This document shows positions 2,778 to 53,520 of a stretch of DNA of 64,000 nucleotides, piece after piece. Under the pieces are notes generated by a model, which was not told where the DNA came from, searched no databases, and saw only the letters and a list, made by a program, of their open reading frames with translations. Made by a program: the position numbers and the translations under genes. Location: the UHGV virus genome UHGV-1493261; one strand, 5' to 3'. How positions within the stretch are numbered: position 1 is the stretch's first letter; each line of letters opens with the position of its first letter. The DNA comes from a virus.

Positions 2778-3319
2778 TGTTTACAGTCGTCGTTTCATAC
2801 CATGCGGAGAACGCTGCTCAGGCATCCTCCAAATTCGCCGAGCACATCATCGGCGGCGGCCATAATGTATTCCTTACCGAATACAACAGGCCTGTTAAAC
2901 CGGGCGACGGTCTTTCGGCGACTGTTACGCATAAGATCGCCAGCGAGCAACCAGAGTCTCTGTTCAGAATGATCGAAGAGTATGCCAGTGGTGGCATCAA
3001 GATACCAGATGAACTGGTAGACGTTTATTTTGAAGGCTCGATCTATTATATCCACGCTATGCCAAAGGATGTAACCATTGAACAGATGATGTATATCCTG
3101 AATATAGCACTGAACACTGCGTGCATCAACCGCACGAACTACAACAATCTGCGCAATATGTACCTAACCGACCGACATAATGAAGCACCGTCACCTATTG
3201 AGACGATGTCCCTGAAGAGCATCCAAGAGGCGGTTAACATTTTGTCCCAGAAGGTTATGGGTGTAGACTTACTAACGACGATTAACAACAAAGAGGAAGT
3301 GAAATGGCCAGTTCATTAA
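2777..3319 (+). CDS. Hypothetical protein
   Basis: 180-aa ORF, co-directional; start overlaps the upstream stop. Confidence 0.5.
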   Translation: MFTVVVSYHAENAAQASSKFAEHIIGGGHNVFLTEYNRPVKPGDGLSATVTHKIASEQPESLFRMIEEYASGGIKIPDELVDVYFEGSIYYIHAMPKDVTIEQMMYILNIALNTACINRTNYNNLRNMYLTDRHNEAPSPIETMSLKSIQEAVNILSQKVMGVDLLTTINNKEEVKWPVH

Positions 3320-4389
3320 TGGACCGCATGCTGAAGGTTGCTAAGAAACACGATGACCAGGCTTCAGTGCTGTCCCAATCAGACGCTCTGGAACCGTCTA
3401 TCATCTGTTCTACTGGTATTCCCCTGATCGACATCGCATGGTCTGGGCGTATTGACGGCGGCCTGATCTCCGGTATCAAGATGATGGTGGGTGATTCCCG
3501 TACCTTCAAAACGATGTTCGGTCTGGTGGACGTCAAGGCGTACATGGACAAGTTCCCTGACGCTATCTGTGTATTTGCTGACTCGGAAAAGGGTGCCAAC
3601 GCCGATTACTGGACCTCTATGGGCATTGACATGGACCGCGTCCTGTACGTACCGATCGACAACGTTGAACAGACCAAGATCCGCTTGCTGCAGATCCTAC
3701 AGGAAGTCAAGAAAGGCGACCATGTTATAATCTTCATCGACTCTATCAGCCAACTTCCCTCCACCAAGGAAGTTGAAGATGCGATCAAAGGGAACGACAC
3801 TCAAGACATGACCCGCGCCCGTGCCCTCAACAGCTTCTGGCGTGTCATGACTCCCGAAATCAACAGCAAAAATCTCGTGTGTGTTTGGATCAACTCCTAT
3901 TACGATGAGATCGGCAACCAATATGCCGAGCCTAACATCAAAGGTGGCAAACAGGGCTTCTTATCCTCCAACTTGATCTGGTTTATCACCCGTTCTCAGG
4001 TGAAGGAAGACAAAGATCTGCTGGGCTGGAACTTCAACATAAGCATCATGAAAGGTCGCCATGTCAAAGAGAAAGCCAAGCTCCCTGTGACGGTACTGTA
4101 CAACGGTGGTATTGATCGCTGGAGCGGCCTGCTTGAGATCGCTCGTGCTCTGGGTTATGTTGATATGCCGTCTTCCGGCTGGTATGTGCGTACAGCCAAG
4201 GGTGGTTTCGATCCTGAGAAGGAAAAGAAATATCAGAAGCGTCAGATGGGTGATGATTTCTGGTATCCGCTGCTGGAGAATGTCAACTTCGCCGATGACG
4301 TGAAGAAAATGTTCGGTGTTTCTAACGGTACTGTTATGCCTGCTAACATGCTGGAGCAAATGGACCATGTTATTAACACAAGCGAATAA
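3304..4389 (+). CDS. uvsX: UvsX RecA-like recombinase
   Basis: 361 aa. Collinear with T4 UvsX: VCVFADSEKG vs VCLFYDSEFG; FIDSISQLPSTKEVEDAIKGNDTQDMTRARALNSFWRVMTPEINSKN vs FIDSLGNLASKKETEDALNEKVVSDMTRAKTMKSLFRIVTPYFSTKN. Confidence 0.92.
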   Translation: MASSLMDRMLKVAKKHDDQASVLSQSDALEPSIICSTGIPLIDIAWSGRIDGGLISGIKMMVGDSRTFKTMFGLVDVKAYMDKFPDAICVFADSEKGANADYWTSMGIDMDRVLYVPIDNVEQTKIRLLQILQEVKKGDHVIIFIDSISQLPSTKEVEDAIKGNDTQDMTRARALNSFWRVMTPEINSKNLVCVWINSYYDEIGNQYAEPNIKGGKQGFLSSNLIWFITRSQVKEDKDLLGWNFNISIMKGRHVKEKAKLPVTVLYNGGIDRWSGLLEIARALGYVDMPSSGWYVRTAKGGFDPEKEKKYQKRQMGDDFWYPLLENVNFADDVKKMFGVSNGTVMPANMLEQMDHVINTSE

Positions 4390-4696
4390 CAGTGGAGGGG
4401 GAGGAGACTCCCCCAATAACTACACAATCATCGACCCTGGTGCTGATCAGCTGGCGATTATCAAGATCACTTCTGGCAAATTCCGTGGAGTTCAATTCCG
4501 GTTCGGCAAGGTGGCCATCAACGAAGTGGACGGCGAACCCCGCCTGTCTTTCGTGACTGATATATTGAAGAAACCATTGCGTCTGATGTTTGTGAATTTG
4601 AAAGAAAATGACTTGTTCACTGAGGTGTCAGGGGATATCCTTGTAGATCTCATGCAGCGTAATGCTCAGGAATATAATAAATTTTTGGTGGGGTAG
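4367..4696 (+). CDS. Hypothetical protein (start uncertain)
   Basis: ORF-track frame begins with GTG at 4316 inside uvsX; first ATG at 4367. Contains a GGGGGAG-GAGA-CTCCCCC hairpin near its 5' end. Confidence 0.35.
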   Translation: MLLTQANNSGGGGDSPNNYTIIDPGADQLAIIKITSGKFRGVQFRFGKVAINEVDGEPRLSFVTDILKKPLRLMFVNLKENDLFTEVSGDILVDLMQRNAQEYNKFLVG

Positions 4697-44059: not shown

Positions 44060-45641
44060 TCAACCTTTCTTCTTTTGCATCATGGCAAGAAGGTTCACAC
44101 GGCGCTTGTGTGACCAGCCGACCACGTCGAGGATAGACTGAATCGGATCAATGAAGGACTTCTCAAAGGCCGCCTGATAATCCACCCATTTGCCCAGACC
44201 AAGCTCCTCAGGGAAGAACTCAGGATATGCGAAGTAATTCTGGCCGAATGGGTTGCCCGGCTTCAACAACACCATCTGTACCTTATCACCAGACTCGATC
44301 ATCGGTAGACCCAGATCTTCGTTCTTCTCAACCAGACGGTTGTAACCCACACAAGCCTTGGCAGCAAAATGAGCACCAGAGATGAACGATCCGTCAGCAG
44401 CCACACACTTCTCTATGTCGGACACGCCTGACGCCTTGGCGATATCGTCTACAGAGAGTTTCATGTACTCCTCTTTGTACTGGGAGATGAGCGTCTGCAC
44501 TTCCTCTTCGGTGCCGAGTAGGATCTTCTCATAGCACTTAACAAGACGCTCACGACACCATTCCGGCGTGGTGGACTTGCGGGCTTCCAGACCTTTGAAC
44601 TTGATCTTCGGCTTCTCGTACTTGATACCCTCACTGTCGTACACGGCCATGGCATACATCTTCTTGGCTCGCCAGACAGCGGCTGACGCAATGACCTCAC
44701 GCTCCCATACCATGCGCTGTTCAAATCCGTTCATGGTGTTACACAGAAGCTGTGCCCACTCATTGGTCTTCGGCTGGTAGTTGTCTTTGATCCATTGGTC
44801 GATATTATCAACCATAGCATGATGGTCAGTAACATCAGGCCACAACTGCTTGACAAGACGCTCAATGCAGATGTAGTTGGAGTCGGTATCCCCTGCGATG
44901 ACGAAGTCCTGGCCTGTTGTACCACACAGCTTGTTCAGATAGTCATCAGTGTAACGCTTGTTCCACTTGTTGATCAGCTGACCGGATGTGGTGATGGCTT
45001 CGGCAATGTTGAGGTTGAAGTACTCTTTGAACCAGACGTTCGAGATAGCGCCATAACCTGCGTTCATCAAGATCTTCAGACCTTGCTGTAGGGTGTCTTG
45101 AGCAACACCCAGATCTTCCCACTTCTTCATCACTTCGGTCAGGGCATCAAGATCAATGTTCTTGTGCTCTTCATACCACTCTGGGTCATAGTAGCGAGAC
45201 TTCATGGCAGACTCAAGATGGAAGTCGCCCTTCGACATCTCTTTACACCAGCCAGCCCACTGCTCATACTTCAGACCCTTGGCCTTCTCTACTTTACGGT
45301 CGCTGTAGATACCACGCATGATTTCAGACAGGAACGACATCTTCTCGTTGCTGAAGAATTGAACGTTCGGCGTGAACGACACGTTGTAGCGGCGCAGGGT
45401 TTCAAAGTGGAACTCACCCAGGGCAACCAACTCATCAACAACCTGCAGGCGTTCGTCAACCGCACGCAACAGCTTGTCGTGAAGGGCTTTCATCAACCGA
45501 CGTTTGTGCATCGGCGTTGCCATGTTATTCATCTGAGCAGCCAGCTCTTCACACATAGCCTCAATAATCTCACGGCGCTGGTGTTTGTCGCCAACGATAG
45601 TCTCTGGACCGAGGTTGTACTGCTGAATGATGTGTGGATAT
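44060..45641 (-). CDS. DNA polymerase (family B, T4 gp43-like), exon 2
   Basis: Begins YPHIIQQYNLGPETI (completes motif A; T4 SLYPSIIRQVNISPETI). Motif B KILMNAGYG; motif C VIAGDTDS. The first 16 codons of the ORF-track ORF are assigned to the intron. Confidence 0.8.
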
Positions 45642-46824
45642 CGCTTGTGTTCAGGGATGCTCGCTATTTCATCCCCCGTGTTCGTCATTCAGTTTACCGA
45701 ACACTGCTGTATGTCACCATACAGGCCAGACTATATCACAATCTCCAGAACTGTCTAGAGATTCTCTCCATTTCGAGGCGCTTGCCCCTACTCTACTCGC
45801 TTCAGATCAGACGCTTAGTCGTCGGTCTTGCTTTCGATAGTCGTTGAACCTTGTCACCCACTACTTCAAGGAAATCATCTGGGTTTAACCCAGCGTAACC
45901 AAAGAGTCGTTTGAAGTTTCTTGCCAACTTGCCCCACTCTACAGTCTTCTTACCTAAATCCTGTTGTGTCAAGCAATGAGCGGTTATTTCTTCCCCACTC
46001 ATTCTGGCAAACATTTCCTTCCTTTTCTCTAAAGAATCTTTAAATTTCTTCTTCGCTTTCGGATCGGCGTTTGGTCCCACCTGGCCTTTCTTTGCGCCTA
46101 TTATACATTTCAACTCACCACTCAAATATCTCGGGTCTTGCGTTGAAACTTTGATAACACTACCATCCAGGAGTCTTACGGGGACAGTGCCTTTGTGAAC
46201 AAGACTGGAATTGGCTTTAATTCTTTCAGCTGTTTCTTTATCAGCGCCGAAATAAGCCTTACCCTTCATATCTGCCCTTTTAACACCCTTCTTAGATTTG
46301 GATATCTTTCTTCTGACATCTTCCCTCTTCGAAGGATTCCCTTCTCCCGTCAACATTTCAACATTCTTTCTTCTCAATTCCTCACTTAGTTCCCCGTTAT
46401 GGGATTTCATCATGAAGTAGGCGAAGAACGCTGATTTATCTTCTGGTAATGCTTCATGCAATAGGCGATGAGCCTCCACATGATCTTTGTACAACAGGTT
46501 TACGATATTCCATTCTTCTTTAGAGAACTCAGGATAATGCGCCTGGGGCAGTATATGATGGTGCTCACTGTATTCATCACCATCATAACTGTGTTCCTCA
46601 CAGAACTTCAAATATTCTTCTATCTTAGATTCTTCAATTACCAAATCATTTCGATAGAACAGACTCTTGATTTCCTTCATGACCTTACTCCTTCACCGTG
46701 GTTACAGAGTATTTAGGTCTTCGTGGCCGACCTTGGCTGCTGATTATCTCTAAAGAGACTTCCCAGCAATTAAGAGAGTTATTCGATGGTTGTCGCCAAC
46801 CAAAGCCCCTATGCTGCTAACTTA
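45642..46824 (-). mobile_element. Group I intron (inferred) in the DNA polymerase gene, carrying an HNH homing endonuclease
   Basis: Exon 1 stops 5 codons after DLNSL; exon 2 resumes at YPHII. Boundaries placed so the 5' exon ends in U and the intron ends in G, giving DLNSLYPHII. GATATAGTC (S-element-like) lies near the 3' end. Confidence 0.6.
45802..46680 (-). CDS. HNH homing endonuclease (intron-encoded)
   Basis: 292 aa. HNH motif HHILPQAHYPEF...NIVNLLYKDHVEAH; Lys-rich C-terminal DNA-binding region. Confidence 0.75.
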   Translation of the reverse strand: MKEIKSLFYRNDLVIEESKIEEYLKFCEEHSYDGDEYSEHHHILPQAHYPEFSKEEWNIVNLLYKDHVEAHRLLHEALPEDKSAFFAYFMMKSHNGELSEELRRKNVEMLTGEGNPSKREDVRRKISKSKKGVKRADMKGKAYFGADKETAERIKANSSLVHKGTVPVRLLDGSVIKVSTQDPRYLSGELKCIIGAKKGQVGPNADPKAKKKFKDSLEKRKEMFARMSGEEITAHCLTQQDLGKKTVEWGKLARNFKRLFGYAGLNPDDFLEVVGDKVQRLSKARPTTKRLI

Positions 46825-48242
46825 AGGGAGTTCAAATCTTCCGAGAAGACCCAGAAGTAGATTCCTGGTGTCACATCCATGACGTATGCACCCTCAAAGT
46901 CGGTCGGACCATCGTATACACGCTGGATCTTAGGCACTATCCCCTTCTCATACAGGCGATAGTAGCACATGGCCAGCCACGGAGCCACAGTGCCCAGACC
47001 GTCTTCATAGTTGGACTTGGTGCGGTACGCAAGGACGAACATCAGCTGGAGCAGACGCAGCTTCTGTTCAAGTCGCCATACCAGCTTAACGTCTTTGATA
47101 CCATATCGGGTGTGTTTGCAGTAGTCGTTGAAGTACAGATCAAAGAGCGACTTGCTCTCACTGTAGTCCATCTTCTTCTCACCCAGCTCACAATACGCAA
47201 TCCAGTCAAGAGAGTAGCGTTCACGGGTGGTGTACGTGTGTTTCTTGTAGATCTGCATATAATCGAGCATAGGGCAACCCACGAACTGATACGTCGTGAT
47301 GTCACCCTTCTTATCACGGATGATGCGCTTCTTAATGATGCCCCAAGGACTGAGGCGCGACGTTTCAGCCTCACCCAGAACCTGATTCATGCGCTCAACA
47401 AGATAAGGGCTATCAAACGTCTCAATGTTCCAGCCAGTCCATCCGTCGAACTGACGCTGTGACCAGAAGTCTAGGAACGAGCGCAGCAGATCTTGTTCGG
47501 TGGTGAACTCCTGATAAACAACCTCAAGGCCGCCGATCTCTTTGTCTTCGGTGTCATATGCGAACTTATTGCGGTCTTTGGCACAGGGCATACCCCAGAC
47601 CATGAACTTATTGGTCGCCATATCCTGAAGCTGGATCAGGGTAATGGGGAACGCCGCATTCATGTCTTGGGTGATCTTGCCGTTGCTGTCAATGATAGGG
47701 AACTGATCAGTGACGTTGTTGCTGATGAAAGAACCAGGGAAGTGCTCACGGACAAAATCATGGTTGGCCAGCACTTGTTTATGGAAGCGGCGAATGCGCG
47801 CCTCATTCCCTTTGAACGTCTGCTGCTCAATGGTTGGGTGAGGGAATGGACCTTTGGTCATCTTTCCGTCTTTCCACCCGGCGGAGAACACTTCGATATC
47901 GAGGTTAGCAATATGGATGTTGGTGTAATCCGGCTCAATCTTTCCAGGAAAGCTATGGGCGATGAACTGGTATGCATAATCGGTCTGCCCGTAAATGGCA
48001 GCACCCTGGACTTCCTTGTACTCTTCAAGATAGTTGTCAGCGTCACGCATGGAAGGGAACTGCTTGGCTACCAGGGGTTCATTGAGCAGGCCGACCTTTT
48101 CAACATTTGAATAGTCAGCCGTGGGTAAATAGAGAGTAGGTTCGAATTTCTTTTTCAACAGACGGCGATTACCCATGTCATCTGCAATTCGAATCAACAG
48201 GTCATTGCCCCTGCGGGCAACGTTCGTATAGAAAACGGTCAT
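46825..48242 (-). CDS. DNA polymerase (family B, T4 gp43-like), exon 1
   Basis: N-terminal 3'-5' exonuclease domain (Exo I ANLDIEV); ends in the first half of motif A (DLNSL). Confidence 0.8.
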
Positions 48243-52709: not shown

Positions 52710-52798
52710 TGGCGGAAGGTGAAGGATTCGAACCTTCGGGGGCTAAAAGCCCCACTCGATTAGCAGTCGAGTCCCTTAAACCTCTCGGGCAACCTTCC
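52710..52798 (-). tRNA. tRNA-Ser (anticodon GCT)
   Basis: Manual cloverleaf: acceptor GGAAGGT/ACCTTCC, anticodon loop CTGCTAA, long variable arm GGGGCTTTTAGCCCC, T-loop GGTTCGAATCC, encoded CCA. Confidence 0.7.
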
Positions 52799-53016
52799 AA
52801 TTTGGACGGGCTTCGCACCCGATTGAGCATTTGATCTGCCGTAGCCCAACTCCCCGCGCTTCACAGCGCCGATTGGTTAACTGGTGACCAGTGCCTTCTG
52901 GTTAGATCCCCTGGAACTTTACAGGCTTCGCGCCCAACCATTTCTGGAAGTTGAGGCATCGTTTCCGATGTGGAGTCCCCTCATTTTACACAGCTGGCTG
53001 CAACGCTTACCGTGTT

Positions 53017-53100
53017 TGGTGTGAGTGGATGGATTCGAACCACCGCGCTGTTACGGGGAGATTTACAGTCTCCTGCATTCGACCGCTCTGCCACACTCAC
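53017..53100 (-). tRNA. tRNA-Tyr (anticodon GTA)
   Basis: Acceptor GTGAGTG/CACTCAC, anticodon stem GGAGA/TCTCC with loop CTGTAAA, 12-nt variable arm, T-arm GGTGG-TTCGAAT-CCATC, encoded CCA. Confidence 0.65.
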
Positions 53101-53216
53101 ATTTGGTGGGTGTTACTATCGTCGTCTTCGGATTCCGTTCGGCTATTGGACGTCGCTTCAAGAGCTTGTCGGTCGCGTACTTCTTGCCTATTCACTTTCG
53201 TTCACACCCATAATTC

Positions 53217-53291
53217 TGGCGGTGCCTCAAGGACTCGAACCTTGCTATCACGGATTAACAGTCCGCCGCTTCACCATTTAGCTAAAGCACC
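53217..53291 (-). tRNA. tRNA-Asn (anticodon GTT)
   Basis: Acceptor GGTGCTT/AGGCACC (one G-U), anticodon loop CTGTTAA, T-arm CAAGG-TTCGAGT-CCTTG, discriminator G, CCA. Confidence 0.7.
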
Positions 53292-53299
53292 TGAATATT

Positions 53300-53375
53300 T
53301 GGCATGCCCTCCAGGACTCGAACCTGGGTTGTACGGTTTTGGAGACCGACCTCATAGCCGCCAGATCAAGGGCAC
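53300..53375 (-). tRNA. tRNA-Trp (anticodon CCA)
   Basis: 76 nt with canonical numbering: T-arm CCAGG-TTCGAGT-CCTGG, anticodon loop CTCCAAA, acceptor GTGCCCT/AGGGCAT, CCA. Confidence 0.7.
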
Positions 53376-53443
53376 ACACCTTACAACGAACTATACTGTA
53401 TAAAGGTTATTGAAACAAACGTTTATTTTATTCAACCATAATA

Positions 53444-53520
53444 TGGTGATCCTGATTGGGTTTGAACCAATGACCAATGAATTATGAGTTCACTGCTCTA
53501 ACCGACTGAGCTACAGGACC
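53444..53520 (-). tRNA. tRNA with CAT anticodon (elongator Met or Ile-lysidine type)
   Basis: Acceptor GGTCCTG/CAGGATC, canonical D-arm TAGCTCAGTCGGTTAGAGC, anticodon loop CTCATAA, T-arm ATTGG-TTCAAAC-CCAAT, CCA. Anticodon stem lacks initiator features. Confidence 0.7.

Follow-up and report, generated by a model that had tools for sequence, protein, structure and literature searches.

Evidence for an nrdB-like group I intron encoding a probable HNH endonuclease within motif A of a phage family-B DNA polymerase gene

The interrupted polymerase gene and the boundaries of the insert

We analysed a 64,000-nucleotide (nt) stretch of viral DNA, UHGV-1493261 (hereafter the window), in which the gene for a family-B DNA polymerase is interrupted by an insert that carries an endonuclease gene of its own. 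Three consecutive open reading frames (ORFs), all on the minus strand, lie at this locus in the ORF list: 48242..46809, 46680..45802 and 45688..44060. The first encodes 477 amino acids (aa), matches the Pfam model DNA_pol_B_exo1 (E = 4.8e-18) and has the C-terminus ...FSEDLNSLKLAA*. The third encodes 542 aa and matches Pfam DNA_pol_B; its N-terminal 16 codons, MTNTGDEIASIPEHKR, are followed by YPHIIQQYNLGPETI. Between these two polymerase ORFs lies the second, of 292 aa. The source phage is a member of the Ackermannviridae from the Aglimvirinae/Agtrevirus group (Agtrevirus-like): its polymerase region is 97.9% identical to that of Escherichia phage vB_EcoM-ZQ1, and phage AV101 shares 97.3% identity with a 24-kb stretch nearby.

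An earlier reading of this DNA, made from the sequence alone (the sequence-only reading), had proposed that the polymerase gene is split inside motif A and that splicing would rebuild ...DLNSL-YPHII.... In our analysis the two ORFs do join in this way. Boundaries at 46825|46824 and 45642|45641 give an insert length of 1183 nt, with U as the last base of exon 1 and G as the last base of the insert. Exon 1 (46825..48242, minus strand) comprises the N-terminal and exonuclease domains and the first half of motif A, and ends in ...SEDLNS plus the CU of a Leu codon (RNA ...UCCCU). Exon 2 (44060..45641, minus strand) supplies the third base of that codon and continues with YPHIIQQ..., the palm, fingers and thumb and the stop codon, as assigned from Pfam DNA_pol_B and an alignment with RB69 gp43. 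The insert itself starts with UAAGUUAG and ends in ...GAACACAAGCG (...AAGCG), with its omega G at 45642. Removal of the insert gives a joined ORF of 3000 nt (999 aa) with CU|A as the restored Leu codon, and in motif A the joined protein aligns with RB69 gp43 without a gap (sedlnslyphiiqqynlgpeti versus sfdltslypsiirqvnispeti). The upstream ORF had been described as ending in FSEDLNSL, five junk codons and a stop; this stands except that the extra codons number four, not five. The downstream ORF resumes polymerase sequence 16 codons into its frame, as had been noted.

The same boundaries are drawn by intronless alleles. The uninterrupted polymerase coding sequence (CDS) of AV101 is exactly 3000 nt long, equal to the spliced window ORF. 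An alignment to intron-less homologues had been proposed as a check, and when it was run a 600-nt junction spliced in silico gave a single 600-nt match to the uninterrupted polymerase genes of close relatives at 97.8-99.0% identity (vB_CECAV_050 99.0%, YX22 98.8%, fGh-Ecl02 and LHE287 98.5%, AV101 97.8%). A 111-aa junction peptide gave an equally unbroken match to the uninterrupted polymerases of Kuttervirus, Taipeivirus and Vibrio phages. The intronless alleles cross the proposed join as ...AACTCCCT|GTATCC..., colinear to the single nucleotide; the intronless site of AV101 and CECAV_050 reads ...AACTCCCT|GTATCCTCACATC... and the spliced junction DNA of the window ...CCCT|ATATCCACACATC.... The predicted ligated exon junction is ...AACUCCCU|AUAUCCAC..., likewise given as ...GAACUCCCU|AUAUCCACAC.... 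The length of 1183 nt, the junction 46825/45641, the U before the insert and the G at its end, all proposed beforehand, are thus identical to what the intronless alleles indicate. Because these alleles are colinear with the join, the insert is a discrete element, present or absent among near-identical genomes. An exact 22-mer of the spliced junction had no match in the viral contigs searched, and a degenerate junction 20-mer matched 34 metagenome contigs, all of them unrelated polymerase genes or chance matches with at most 44% identity to the window exons.

The arrangement of the ORFs could also be taken for a split polymerase, in which the insert stays in the RNA and the fragments ...DLNSLKLAA and MTNTGDEIASIPEHKRYPHII... 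are translated separately and assemble as two subunits. Both ORFs are open, the second has an in-frame ATG at 45688, and in database records each piece is a 'DNA polymerase' CDS of its own. Splits of gp43 and NrdA are known in T4-related phages, with gp43A/gp43B of Aeromonas phages 44RR and 25 and the split NrdA of Aeh1 as documented cases (PMC2988022). The position of the break speaks against a split protein, however, as it lies within motif A and would part the catalytic Asp from Tyr-Pro with no linker. Further evidence on this point comes from the structure of the insert and from its relatives, and is given below.

Inteins and group II introns are known to interrupt conserved motifs of replication genes, and to that extent the site would suit either of them. 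As explanations of this insert both are almost certainly wrong. An intein is ruled out by a stop four codons into the insert and by the endonuclease ORF having its own start, and a group II intron by the window scans, which found no group II Rfam family and no reverse transcriptase.

In the record of phage ZQ1 (3055..4683) two CDSs (3055..4449 and 4558..4683) stand in place of the second polymerase exon, a division that suggests a frameshift or a sequencing error. Exon 2 of the window, unlike that annotation, is a single continuous ORF.

Ribozyme structure and covariation

At the Rfam gathering threshold, a scan of the window reported five tRNAs alone; these are clustered genes on the minus strand at 52713..53520 (RF00005, 44-71 bits). 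At a relaxed threshold the group I intron family RF00028 (Intron_gpI) matched 45967..45707 with 31.2 bits (E = 1.1e-5). In this match P7, P3', P8, the S element and P9 are well aligned and the 5' half is forced into coding sequence. The low score is due to the 879-nt ORF in the P6a loop, which the model cannot absorb. Phages A221, PC3 and PH4 have the same insert with the ORF mostly deleted, so that 465 nt are left. The intron of A221 is that of the window minus 718 nt of the ORF and plus three substitutions outside the helices, two in the P6a loop (within the hairpin upstream of the endonuclease gene, see below) and one in the 3' tail. It scores 63.6 bits with RF00028 (threshold 50, E = 9.4e-16) over the full model, positions 1-253, from P1 at the exon junction to P9. 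A covariance-model search for a P1-P9 fold, suggested by the sequence-only reading, has thus returned one in the ORF-deleted allele. No second intron was found in the whole-window Rfam scan at the relaxed threshold.

The anatomy of the intron (45642..46824, 1183 nt, IA2 type, T4 nrdB-like) was assigned from Rfam, covariation, minimum free energy (MFE) folding and the intronless alleles; all coordinates that follow are on the minus strand. P1 (46806..46828, from the sequence and the MFE fold) pairs exon CCCU (46828..46825) and intron UA with the guide UAGGGG (46811..46806). The exon-terminal U is paired to G, giving a U.G wobble at the 5' splice site. This CCCU/GGGG pairing is kept in all polymerase-site homologues, while the guide of the nrdB intron is altered to suit its own exon (GCGU/GCGC). 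P2 is a hairpin, GGUUG GCGA CAACC (46788..46801), with compensatory changes in all five of its pairs. The 5' strand of P3 (46778..46773) and the strands of P4, P5, P5' and P4' (46768..46738) make up the segment 46738..46778, supported by Rfam, covariation and RNAalifold. The 5' strands of P6 (GCC) and P6a (GUCGGCCAC) follow at 46723..46737, and nine of nine P6a pairs show compensatory changes. The endonuclease ORF is located in the loop of P6a. Beyond it the segment 45838..45861, which also encodes ...VQRL of the endonuclease C-terminus, comprises the 3' strand of P6a (45861..45853), the 3' strand of P6, and J6/7 with the 5' strand of P7. The R element, GTTCAACGACTA / GUUCAACGACUA, corresponds to J6/7 plus the P7 5' strand (45849..45838).

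Two further helices, P7.1 (45828..45804) and P7.2 (45788..45775, loop AAGC), occupy 45775..45828 and are supported by covariation, RNAalifold and the MFE fold; P7.1 contains the stop codon of the endonuclease. Peripheral helices of this kind are typical of subgroup IA, and in the Michel-Westhof classification P7.1/P7.2 between P7 and P3', together with P9.1/P9.2 extensions, mark subgroup IA2, the T-even phage type. The segment 45729..45769, supported by Rfam and covariation, holds the 3' strand of P3 (GGAGAG, 45769..45764), P8 (45763..45740), and J8/7 with the 3' strand of P7. The latter pair of elements is the S element, GATATAGTC / GAUAUAGUC at 45737..45729, and the S-element-like sequence noticed earlier near the 3' end of the insert proved to be this GATATAGTC. 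The remainder, 45642..45724, is made up of P9 (45724..45707), P9.1 (45704..45678), P9.2 (45675..45654) and the 3' tail UGAACACAAGCG, again from covariation, RNAalifold and MFE. The ATG of the downstream polymerase ORF is held in the loop of P9.1. The core from P3 to P8 is complete, including the P3/P7 pseudoknot and the J6/7-P7-J8/7 segments, and the subgroup IA2 helices P7.1, P7.2, P9.1 and P9.2 are all present.

In a sensitive DNA search the 465-nt intron gave a match in two pieces, 81% identical, to the intron of T4 nrdB. The segments GUUCAACGACU (J6/7 plus P7 5' strand) and UGAUAUAGUCUG (J8/7 plus P7 3' strand) do not vary among the nine aligned introns, that of T4 nrdB included. By homology to T4 nrdB, the guanosine-binding site is predicted to be conserved.

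For the covariation analysis we aligned nine introns with their ORFs removed: four from Enterobacteria-infecting Ackermannviridae, four from divergent phages with an intron at the same site, and that of T4 nrdB. Pairs were counted with the P3/P7 pseudoknot included, and the controls were the same pairs with partners slid by 1-3 columns, together with 500 shuffles. For the structure drawn by hand from the window sequence, which inflates the advantage over the slid controls, 90.5% of cells are pairing versus 36-44% in those controls, and 47 of 88 pairs are changed on both sides (13-22 in the slid controls). None of the 500 shuffles reached any of the observed covariation measures. Compensatory changes are abundant in P2, P6a, P8, P9 and P9.2. 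Because the drawing derives from the window, RNAalifold and MFE folding were run as checks that are free of it. Unaided, RNAalifold recovered P2, P3, P4, P5, P6, P6a, P7.2, P8, P9, P9.1 and P9.2, with 41 of its 66 pairs compensatory. The MFE fold of the window intron with the ORF deleted runs from P1 through P9.2 (z = -3.43), and none of 100 shuffles was as stable.

We consider it very probable that the Leu codon of motif A is split by a mobile group I intron, the insert at 46824..45642 on the minus strand, which is IA2 and nrdB-like and carries a MobE-like HNH endonuclease gene in its P6a loop. A group I intron with an HNH endonuclease had been held probable in the sequence-only reading, and the A221 Rfam score, RNAalifold, the MFE fold, covariation and the homology to T4 nrdB all argue for it. 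Several points weigh on the other side. The raw window scores 31.2 bits with RF00028, below the gathering score of 50. P7 and the junction segments, and most of P4 too, are invariant and hence uninformative for covariation, and the hand-drawn structure has the advantage over its controls mentioned above. The window and its close relatives keep an in-frame ATG 16 codons 5' of exon 2. Finally, a literature search for splicing data on Ackermannviridae polymerase introns found none.

The low raw score might suggest a dead intron remnant accompanied by a free-standing endonuclease cassette, the polymerase being non-functional or rescued by ribosomal bypass or trans-complementation. Endonuclease genes in such phages do often decay, as in A221 (see also PMC6267328). 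A remnant of this sort is nevertheless extremely unlikely: the polymerase is essential and both its exons are intact and clearly constrained, the core helices are all intact with substitutions that are compensatory, and the score that falls short in the raw window, where the 879-nt ORF depresses it, is 63.6 bits for the ORF-less core.

The in-frame ATG bears on the split polymerase. At 45688 it lies in the conserved P9.1 loop and has no Shine-Dalgarno sequence. In the homologues from Vibrio, Krischvirus G2494 and POP12 an in-frame stop lies 1-8 codons before exon 2, with no ATG, GTG or TTG after it, so that a separate C-terminal fragment is impossible in these phages. A split polymerase also offers no reason for a conserved, covarying ribozyme, least of all after the loss of the endonuclease in A221; a ribozyme that stays intact after that loss is sensible only if splicing is needed. 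The sequence-only reading had offered two polypeptides as the alternative to an intron. From the stops in the divergent homologues this alternative is disfavoured, and we regard it as very unlikely.

The intron-encoded endonuclease, mobility and decay

The ORF in the P6a loop (45802..46680, minus strand, 292 aa) was assigned as an HNH homing endonuclease from PHROG matches, invariant His and Asn residues, a structural model and Mob-like homologues. It matches phrog_12434 ('HNH endonuclease') from end to end (E = 4.4e-160) and phrog_655 ('homing endonuclease', E = 5e-22), and in tblastn it is similar to Mob-like and mobE-annotated genes of T4-type phages. The HNH motif reads H41/H42...N58...H67...H71 and is followed by a weak NUMOD3 match. 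Among 20 homologues H41, H42, H67 and H71 are invariant and N58 is found in at least 90%. In the predicted structure the N-terminal domain (pLDDT, predicted local distance difference test, 94.5) has a strand at 39-42, a strand at 59-62 and a helix at 64-77, a beta-beta-alpha arrangement that bears the His and Asn residues of the motif. A Pfam search gave no match at E <= 0.01 and, at a relaxed threshold, the weak NUMOD3 match only (E = 0.084); no match was found in NCBIfam, and a search of Protein Data Bank sequences gave nothing meaningful, with no similarity to any solved structure, I-HmuI included. The HNH assignment thus rests on the motif, PHROG and the Mob-like homologues, the Pfam HNH models being silent. 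We conclude that the ORF probably encodes a MobE-like HNH homing endonuclease, judging from its sequence. The ORF at 45802-46680 is as first described and so is its probable HNH type; the description 'free-standing' has to be dropped, as the gene is intron-encoded within the P6a loop.

The endonuclease shows no similarity to the remnant of I-TevIII in T4, and the kinship of the ribozyme to the nrdB intron is therefore not shared by the endonuclease. Ribozyme and endonuclease appear to have separate histories. The 3' end of the ORF overlaps P6a', P6', J6/7, P7 and P7.1. Here GUUCAACGACUAUCGAAAG (45849..45831, J6/7, P7 and the start of P7.1), a 19-mer present in more than 120 viral contigs and mostly at introns in other genes, encodes the C-terminal VQRLSK of the endonuclease, and VQRLSK is kept even in endonuclease homologues of 31-50% identity. 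The RNA appears to constrain the protein at this point.

A hairpin (46681..46719, minus strand; MFE -16.5 kcal/mol, z = -2.17) lies 5' of the endonuclease gene. Its 5' arm contains TAAATA (46715..46710), which resembles a T4 late promoter, and its 3' arm pairs part of the ribosome binding site (RBS) AAGGAG (46693..46688). In the annotation of phage LIMEstone1 this same TAAATA is marked as a putative late promoter. Reviews describe a similar arrangement of late promoter and RBS hairpin for T4 intron endonucleases (PMC2988022), and by analogy the hairpin may have a role in the control of the endonuclease.

The same insert is found in other Limestonevirus, Kuttervirus and Agtrevirus records. By way of endonuclease homologues we also reached introns at the same position (D-x-x-S/A-L|Y-P) in Vibrio phage 1.255.O, Acinetobacter phage SH-Ab 15599, Krischvirus G2494, Pectobacterium phage POP12 and a wastewater contig. 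All of these same-site introns have an exon 1 ending in CCCU, the guide GGGG and a terminal G. The core motif GTTCAACGACTATCGAAAG matched more than 120 viral contigs. Downstream of three of 130 matches is a motif-A-like YP; one of the three is LIMEstone1, and the other two are at most candidates for the same site. With so few matches near motif A, GTTCAACGACTATCGAAAG marks a broad class of phage introns and not the polymerase site. The 3' exons of the nrdB and polymerase sites both start with G-U-A-Y-C (nrdB ...GCGU|GUACCU, polymerase ...CCCU|GUAYCC), which could reflect a ribozyme preference or a shared target-site history.

Comparison of intron and exons points to mobility. With Kuttervirus maane the window shares 94% identity in the intron against 82% and 74% in the flanking exons; with LIMEstone1 the identity is 85% for the intron and 92% for exon 1. 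At the start of exon 2 (45641..45606) the first 36 nt of maane and the first 21 nt of KE30 are identical to the window, and past these 36 and 21 nt exon 2 of both follows the Kuttervirus pattern of the intron-less Det7. Their exon 1 is Kuttervirus-like up to about 12 nt from the junction. The intron-less Agtrevirus alleles are near-identical to the window, with silent differences at +1 and +7 in both and, in AV101, also at +16 and +22. The pattern in exon 2 is what homing with a short and asymmetric co-conversion tract would be expected to leave, or it may be a signature of endonuclease immunity, and it suggests that the enzyme may recognise or cut DNA on the exon 2 side. A second insert, I-LimIII, lies about 480 nt into exon 2 (near window position 45160) in LIMEstone1 (3521..4363), maane and KE30; its endonuclease gene runs on the opposite strand, and the corresponding position of the window is uninterrupted.

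Loss of the endonuclease in A221, PC3 and PH4 involved two deletions between short direct repeats. Relative to A221, these are a 657-bp deletion (window 46669..46013) between copies of AAGGAAAT and a 61-bp deletion (window 46000..45940) between copies of GAGTGGGG. The ribozyme was retained in all three phages despite the loss of the endonuclease gene, a textbook stage in the decay of such a gene.

We tentatively propose that the intron is a member of a lineage specialised for motif-A DNA (D-x-x-S-L|Y-P), put together from an IA2 ribozyme of the nrdB type and a MobE-like HNH gene unrelated to it, which has moved between Ackermannviridae and Straboviridae and, very recently, between genera of Ackermannviridae. 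The chance that this proposal holds in full is, in our view, slightly short of even. A review in 2010 found no convincing evidence for such elements moving between clusters of T4-related phages (PMC2993671). If such a lineage exists, its members might serve as a weapon in mixed infections, cutting the essential polymerase gene of intron-less competitors.

Proposed mechanism, significance and comparison with known systems

From the known chemistry of group I introns we infer that the polymerase intron is spliced, and for the endonuclease we likewise infer its activity and cut site. The boundaries, the covarying fold, the homology to nrdB, the presence or absence of the intron, the co-conversion tracts and the decay of the endonuclease with the ribozyme intact were computed here, and the following course of events would be consistent with them. 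The polymerase pre-mRNA would be transcribed through the intron, and the RNA would fold into P1-P9.2. A free guanosine bound in P7 would attack after the exon-terminal U (46825), held as a U.G wobble in P1. Exon 1, now free, would then attack after the terminal G (45642), and the ligated message would be translated into a single family-B polymerase of 999 aa. The endonuclease gene would probably be expressed from its own late-promoter-like element, with its RBS held in the hairpin. When intron-bearing and intron-less phages infect the same cell, the enzyme would cleave the polymerase allele that lacks the intron, near the DNA that encodes motif A, and repair from intron-bearing genomes would copy the intron together with a short stretch of exon 2.

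The immediate consequence is for annotation. Two 'DNA polymerase' CDSs and a 'hypothetical protein' should become one joined CDS and an intron-encoded endonuclease in the window and in relatives such as ZQ1, RPN242 and A221, and the exact join to be annotated is 46825|45641 in window coordinates. The Rfam default threshold overlooks the intron because of the ORF in P6a. One group of phages shows the life cycle of a homing endonuclease, with an empty site, a full intron, an intron with a decayed endonuclease and visible co-conversion tracts. It is textbook knowledge that group I introns with homing endonucleases sit in conserved motifs of phage replication genes, and this intron leaves the accepted picture as it is. 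What is added, to a modest extent, are the exact predicted splice sites, a structure with covariation support and a link to the T4 nrdB ribozyme, together with a picture of a motif-A-specific intron lineage in Ackermannviridae and Straboviridae with fresh co-conversion scars. Phages of this group find use in biocontrol and therapy (PMC3296691), and there it matters in practice whether phages applied together recombine.

The element is of a known kind, and as early as 2012 its LIMEstone1 orthologue had been marked as a putative intron. Adriaenssens et al. listed it as 'putative intron I-LimII' from the interruption of the gene alone (PMC3296691); their paper reports neither an RNA structure nor splice sites nor data on splicing, and the enzyme appears in its table as GIY-YIG. 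I-LimII has the same site and the same length of 1183 nt and encodes an endonuclease of 292-294 aa; the introns are 85% and the endonucleases 85.6% identical. LIMEstone1 differs in carrying I-LimIII further into exon 2. The GenBank record of Dickeya phage Coodle states that it 'may contain introns'.

The closest ribozyme is that of the T4/RB3 nrdB intron, an IA2 intron that encodes I-TevIII. The core is homologous, P4 is near-identical and the P7.2 loop AAGC is common to both; the nrdB intron also has the same layout of P9, P9.1 and P9.2, the 3' tail GAACAYA..G, and likewise an ORF in the P6a loop whose 3' end runs into the core. I-TevIII is of the HNH class (PMC2988022), and the T4 nrdB intron is among the self-splicing introns of the T-even phages (PMC2988022, PMC2993671). 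The two introns differ in their host gene (nrdB in T4) and guide (GCGC versus GGGG), P7.1 of the window is much longer, and the endonucleases are not detectably related, at least as judged from the T4 remnant.

As regards the host gene, group I introns occur in DNA polymerase genes of other phages as well. The intron-bearing polymerases of Bacillus phages belong to family A, and their enzymes are nicking endonucleases. Judging from the titles cited in PMC2988022, the introns of this type (that of I-BasI in Bastille, and that of I-HmuI, a related intron-encoded HNH enzyme) are also group I introns in a DNA polymerase gene and encode an enzyme of the HNH class. In gene 43, 25.g43B of Aeromonas phage 25 is a self-splicing intron, and that of JSE is a putative one with a truncated endonuclease gene (PMC2993671). 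Like the intron described here, these are group I introns in the family-B polymerase of large myoviruses. The intron of Aeromonas phage 25 lacks an endonuclease gene and is believed to rely on a free-standing one, whereas the window intron encodes its own, and Krischvirus G2494, a relative of JSE, carries a full-length homologue of the window endonuclease at the same motif-A site.

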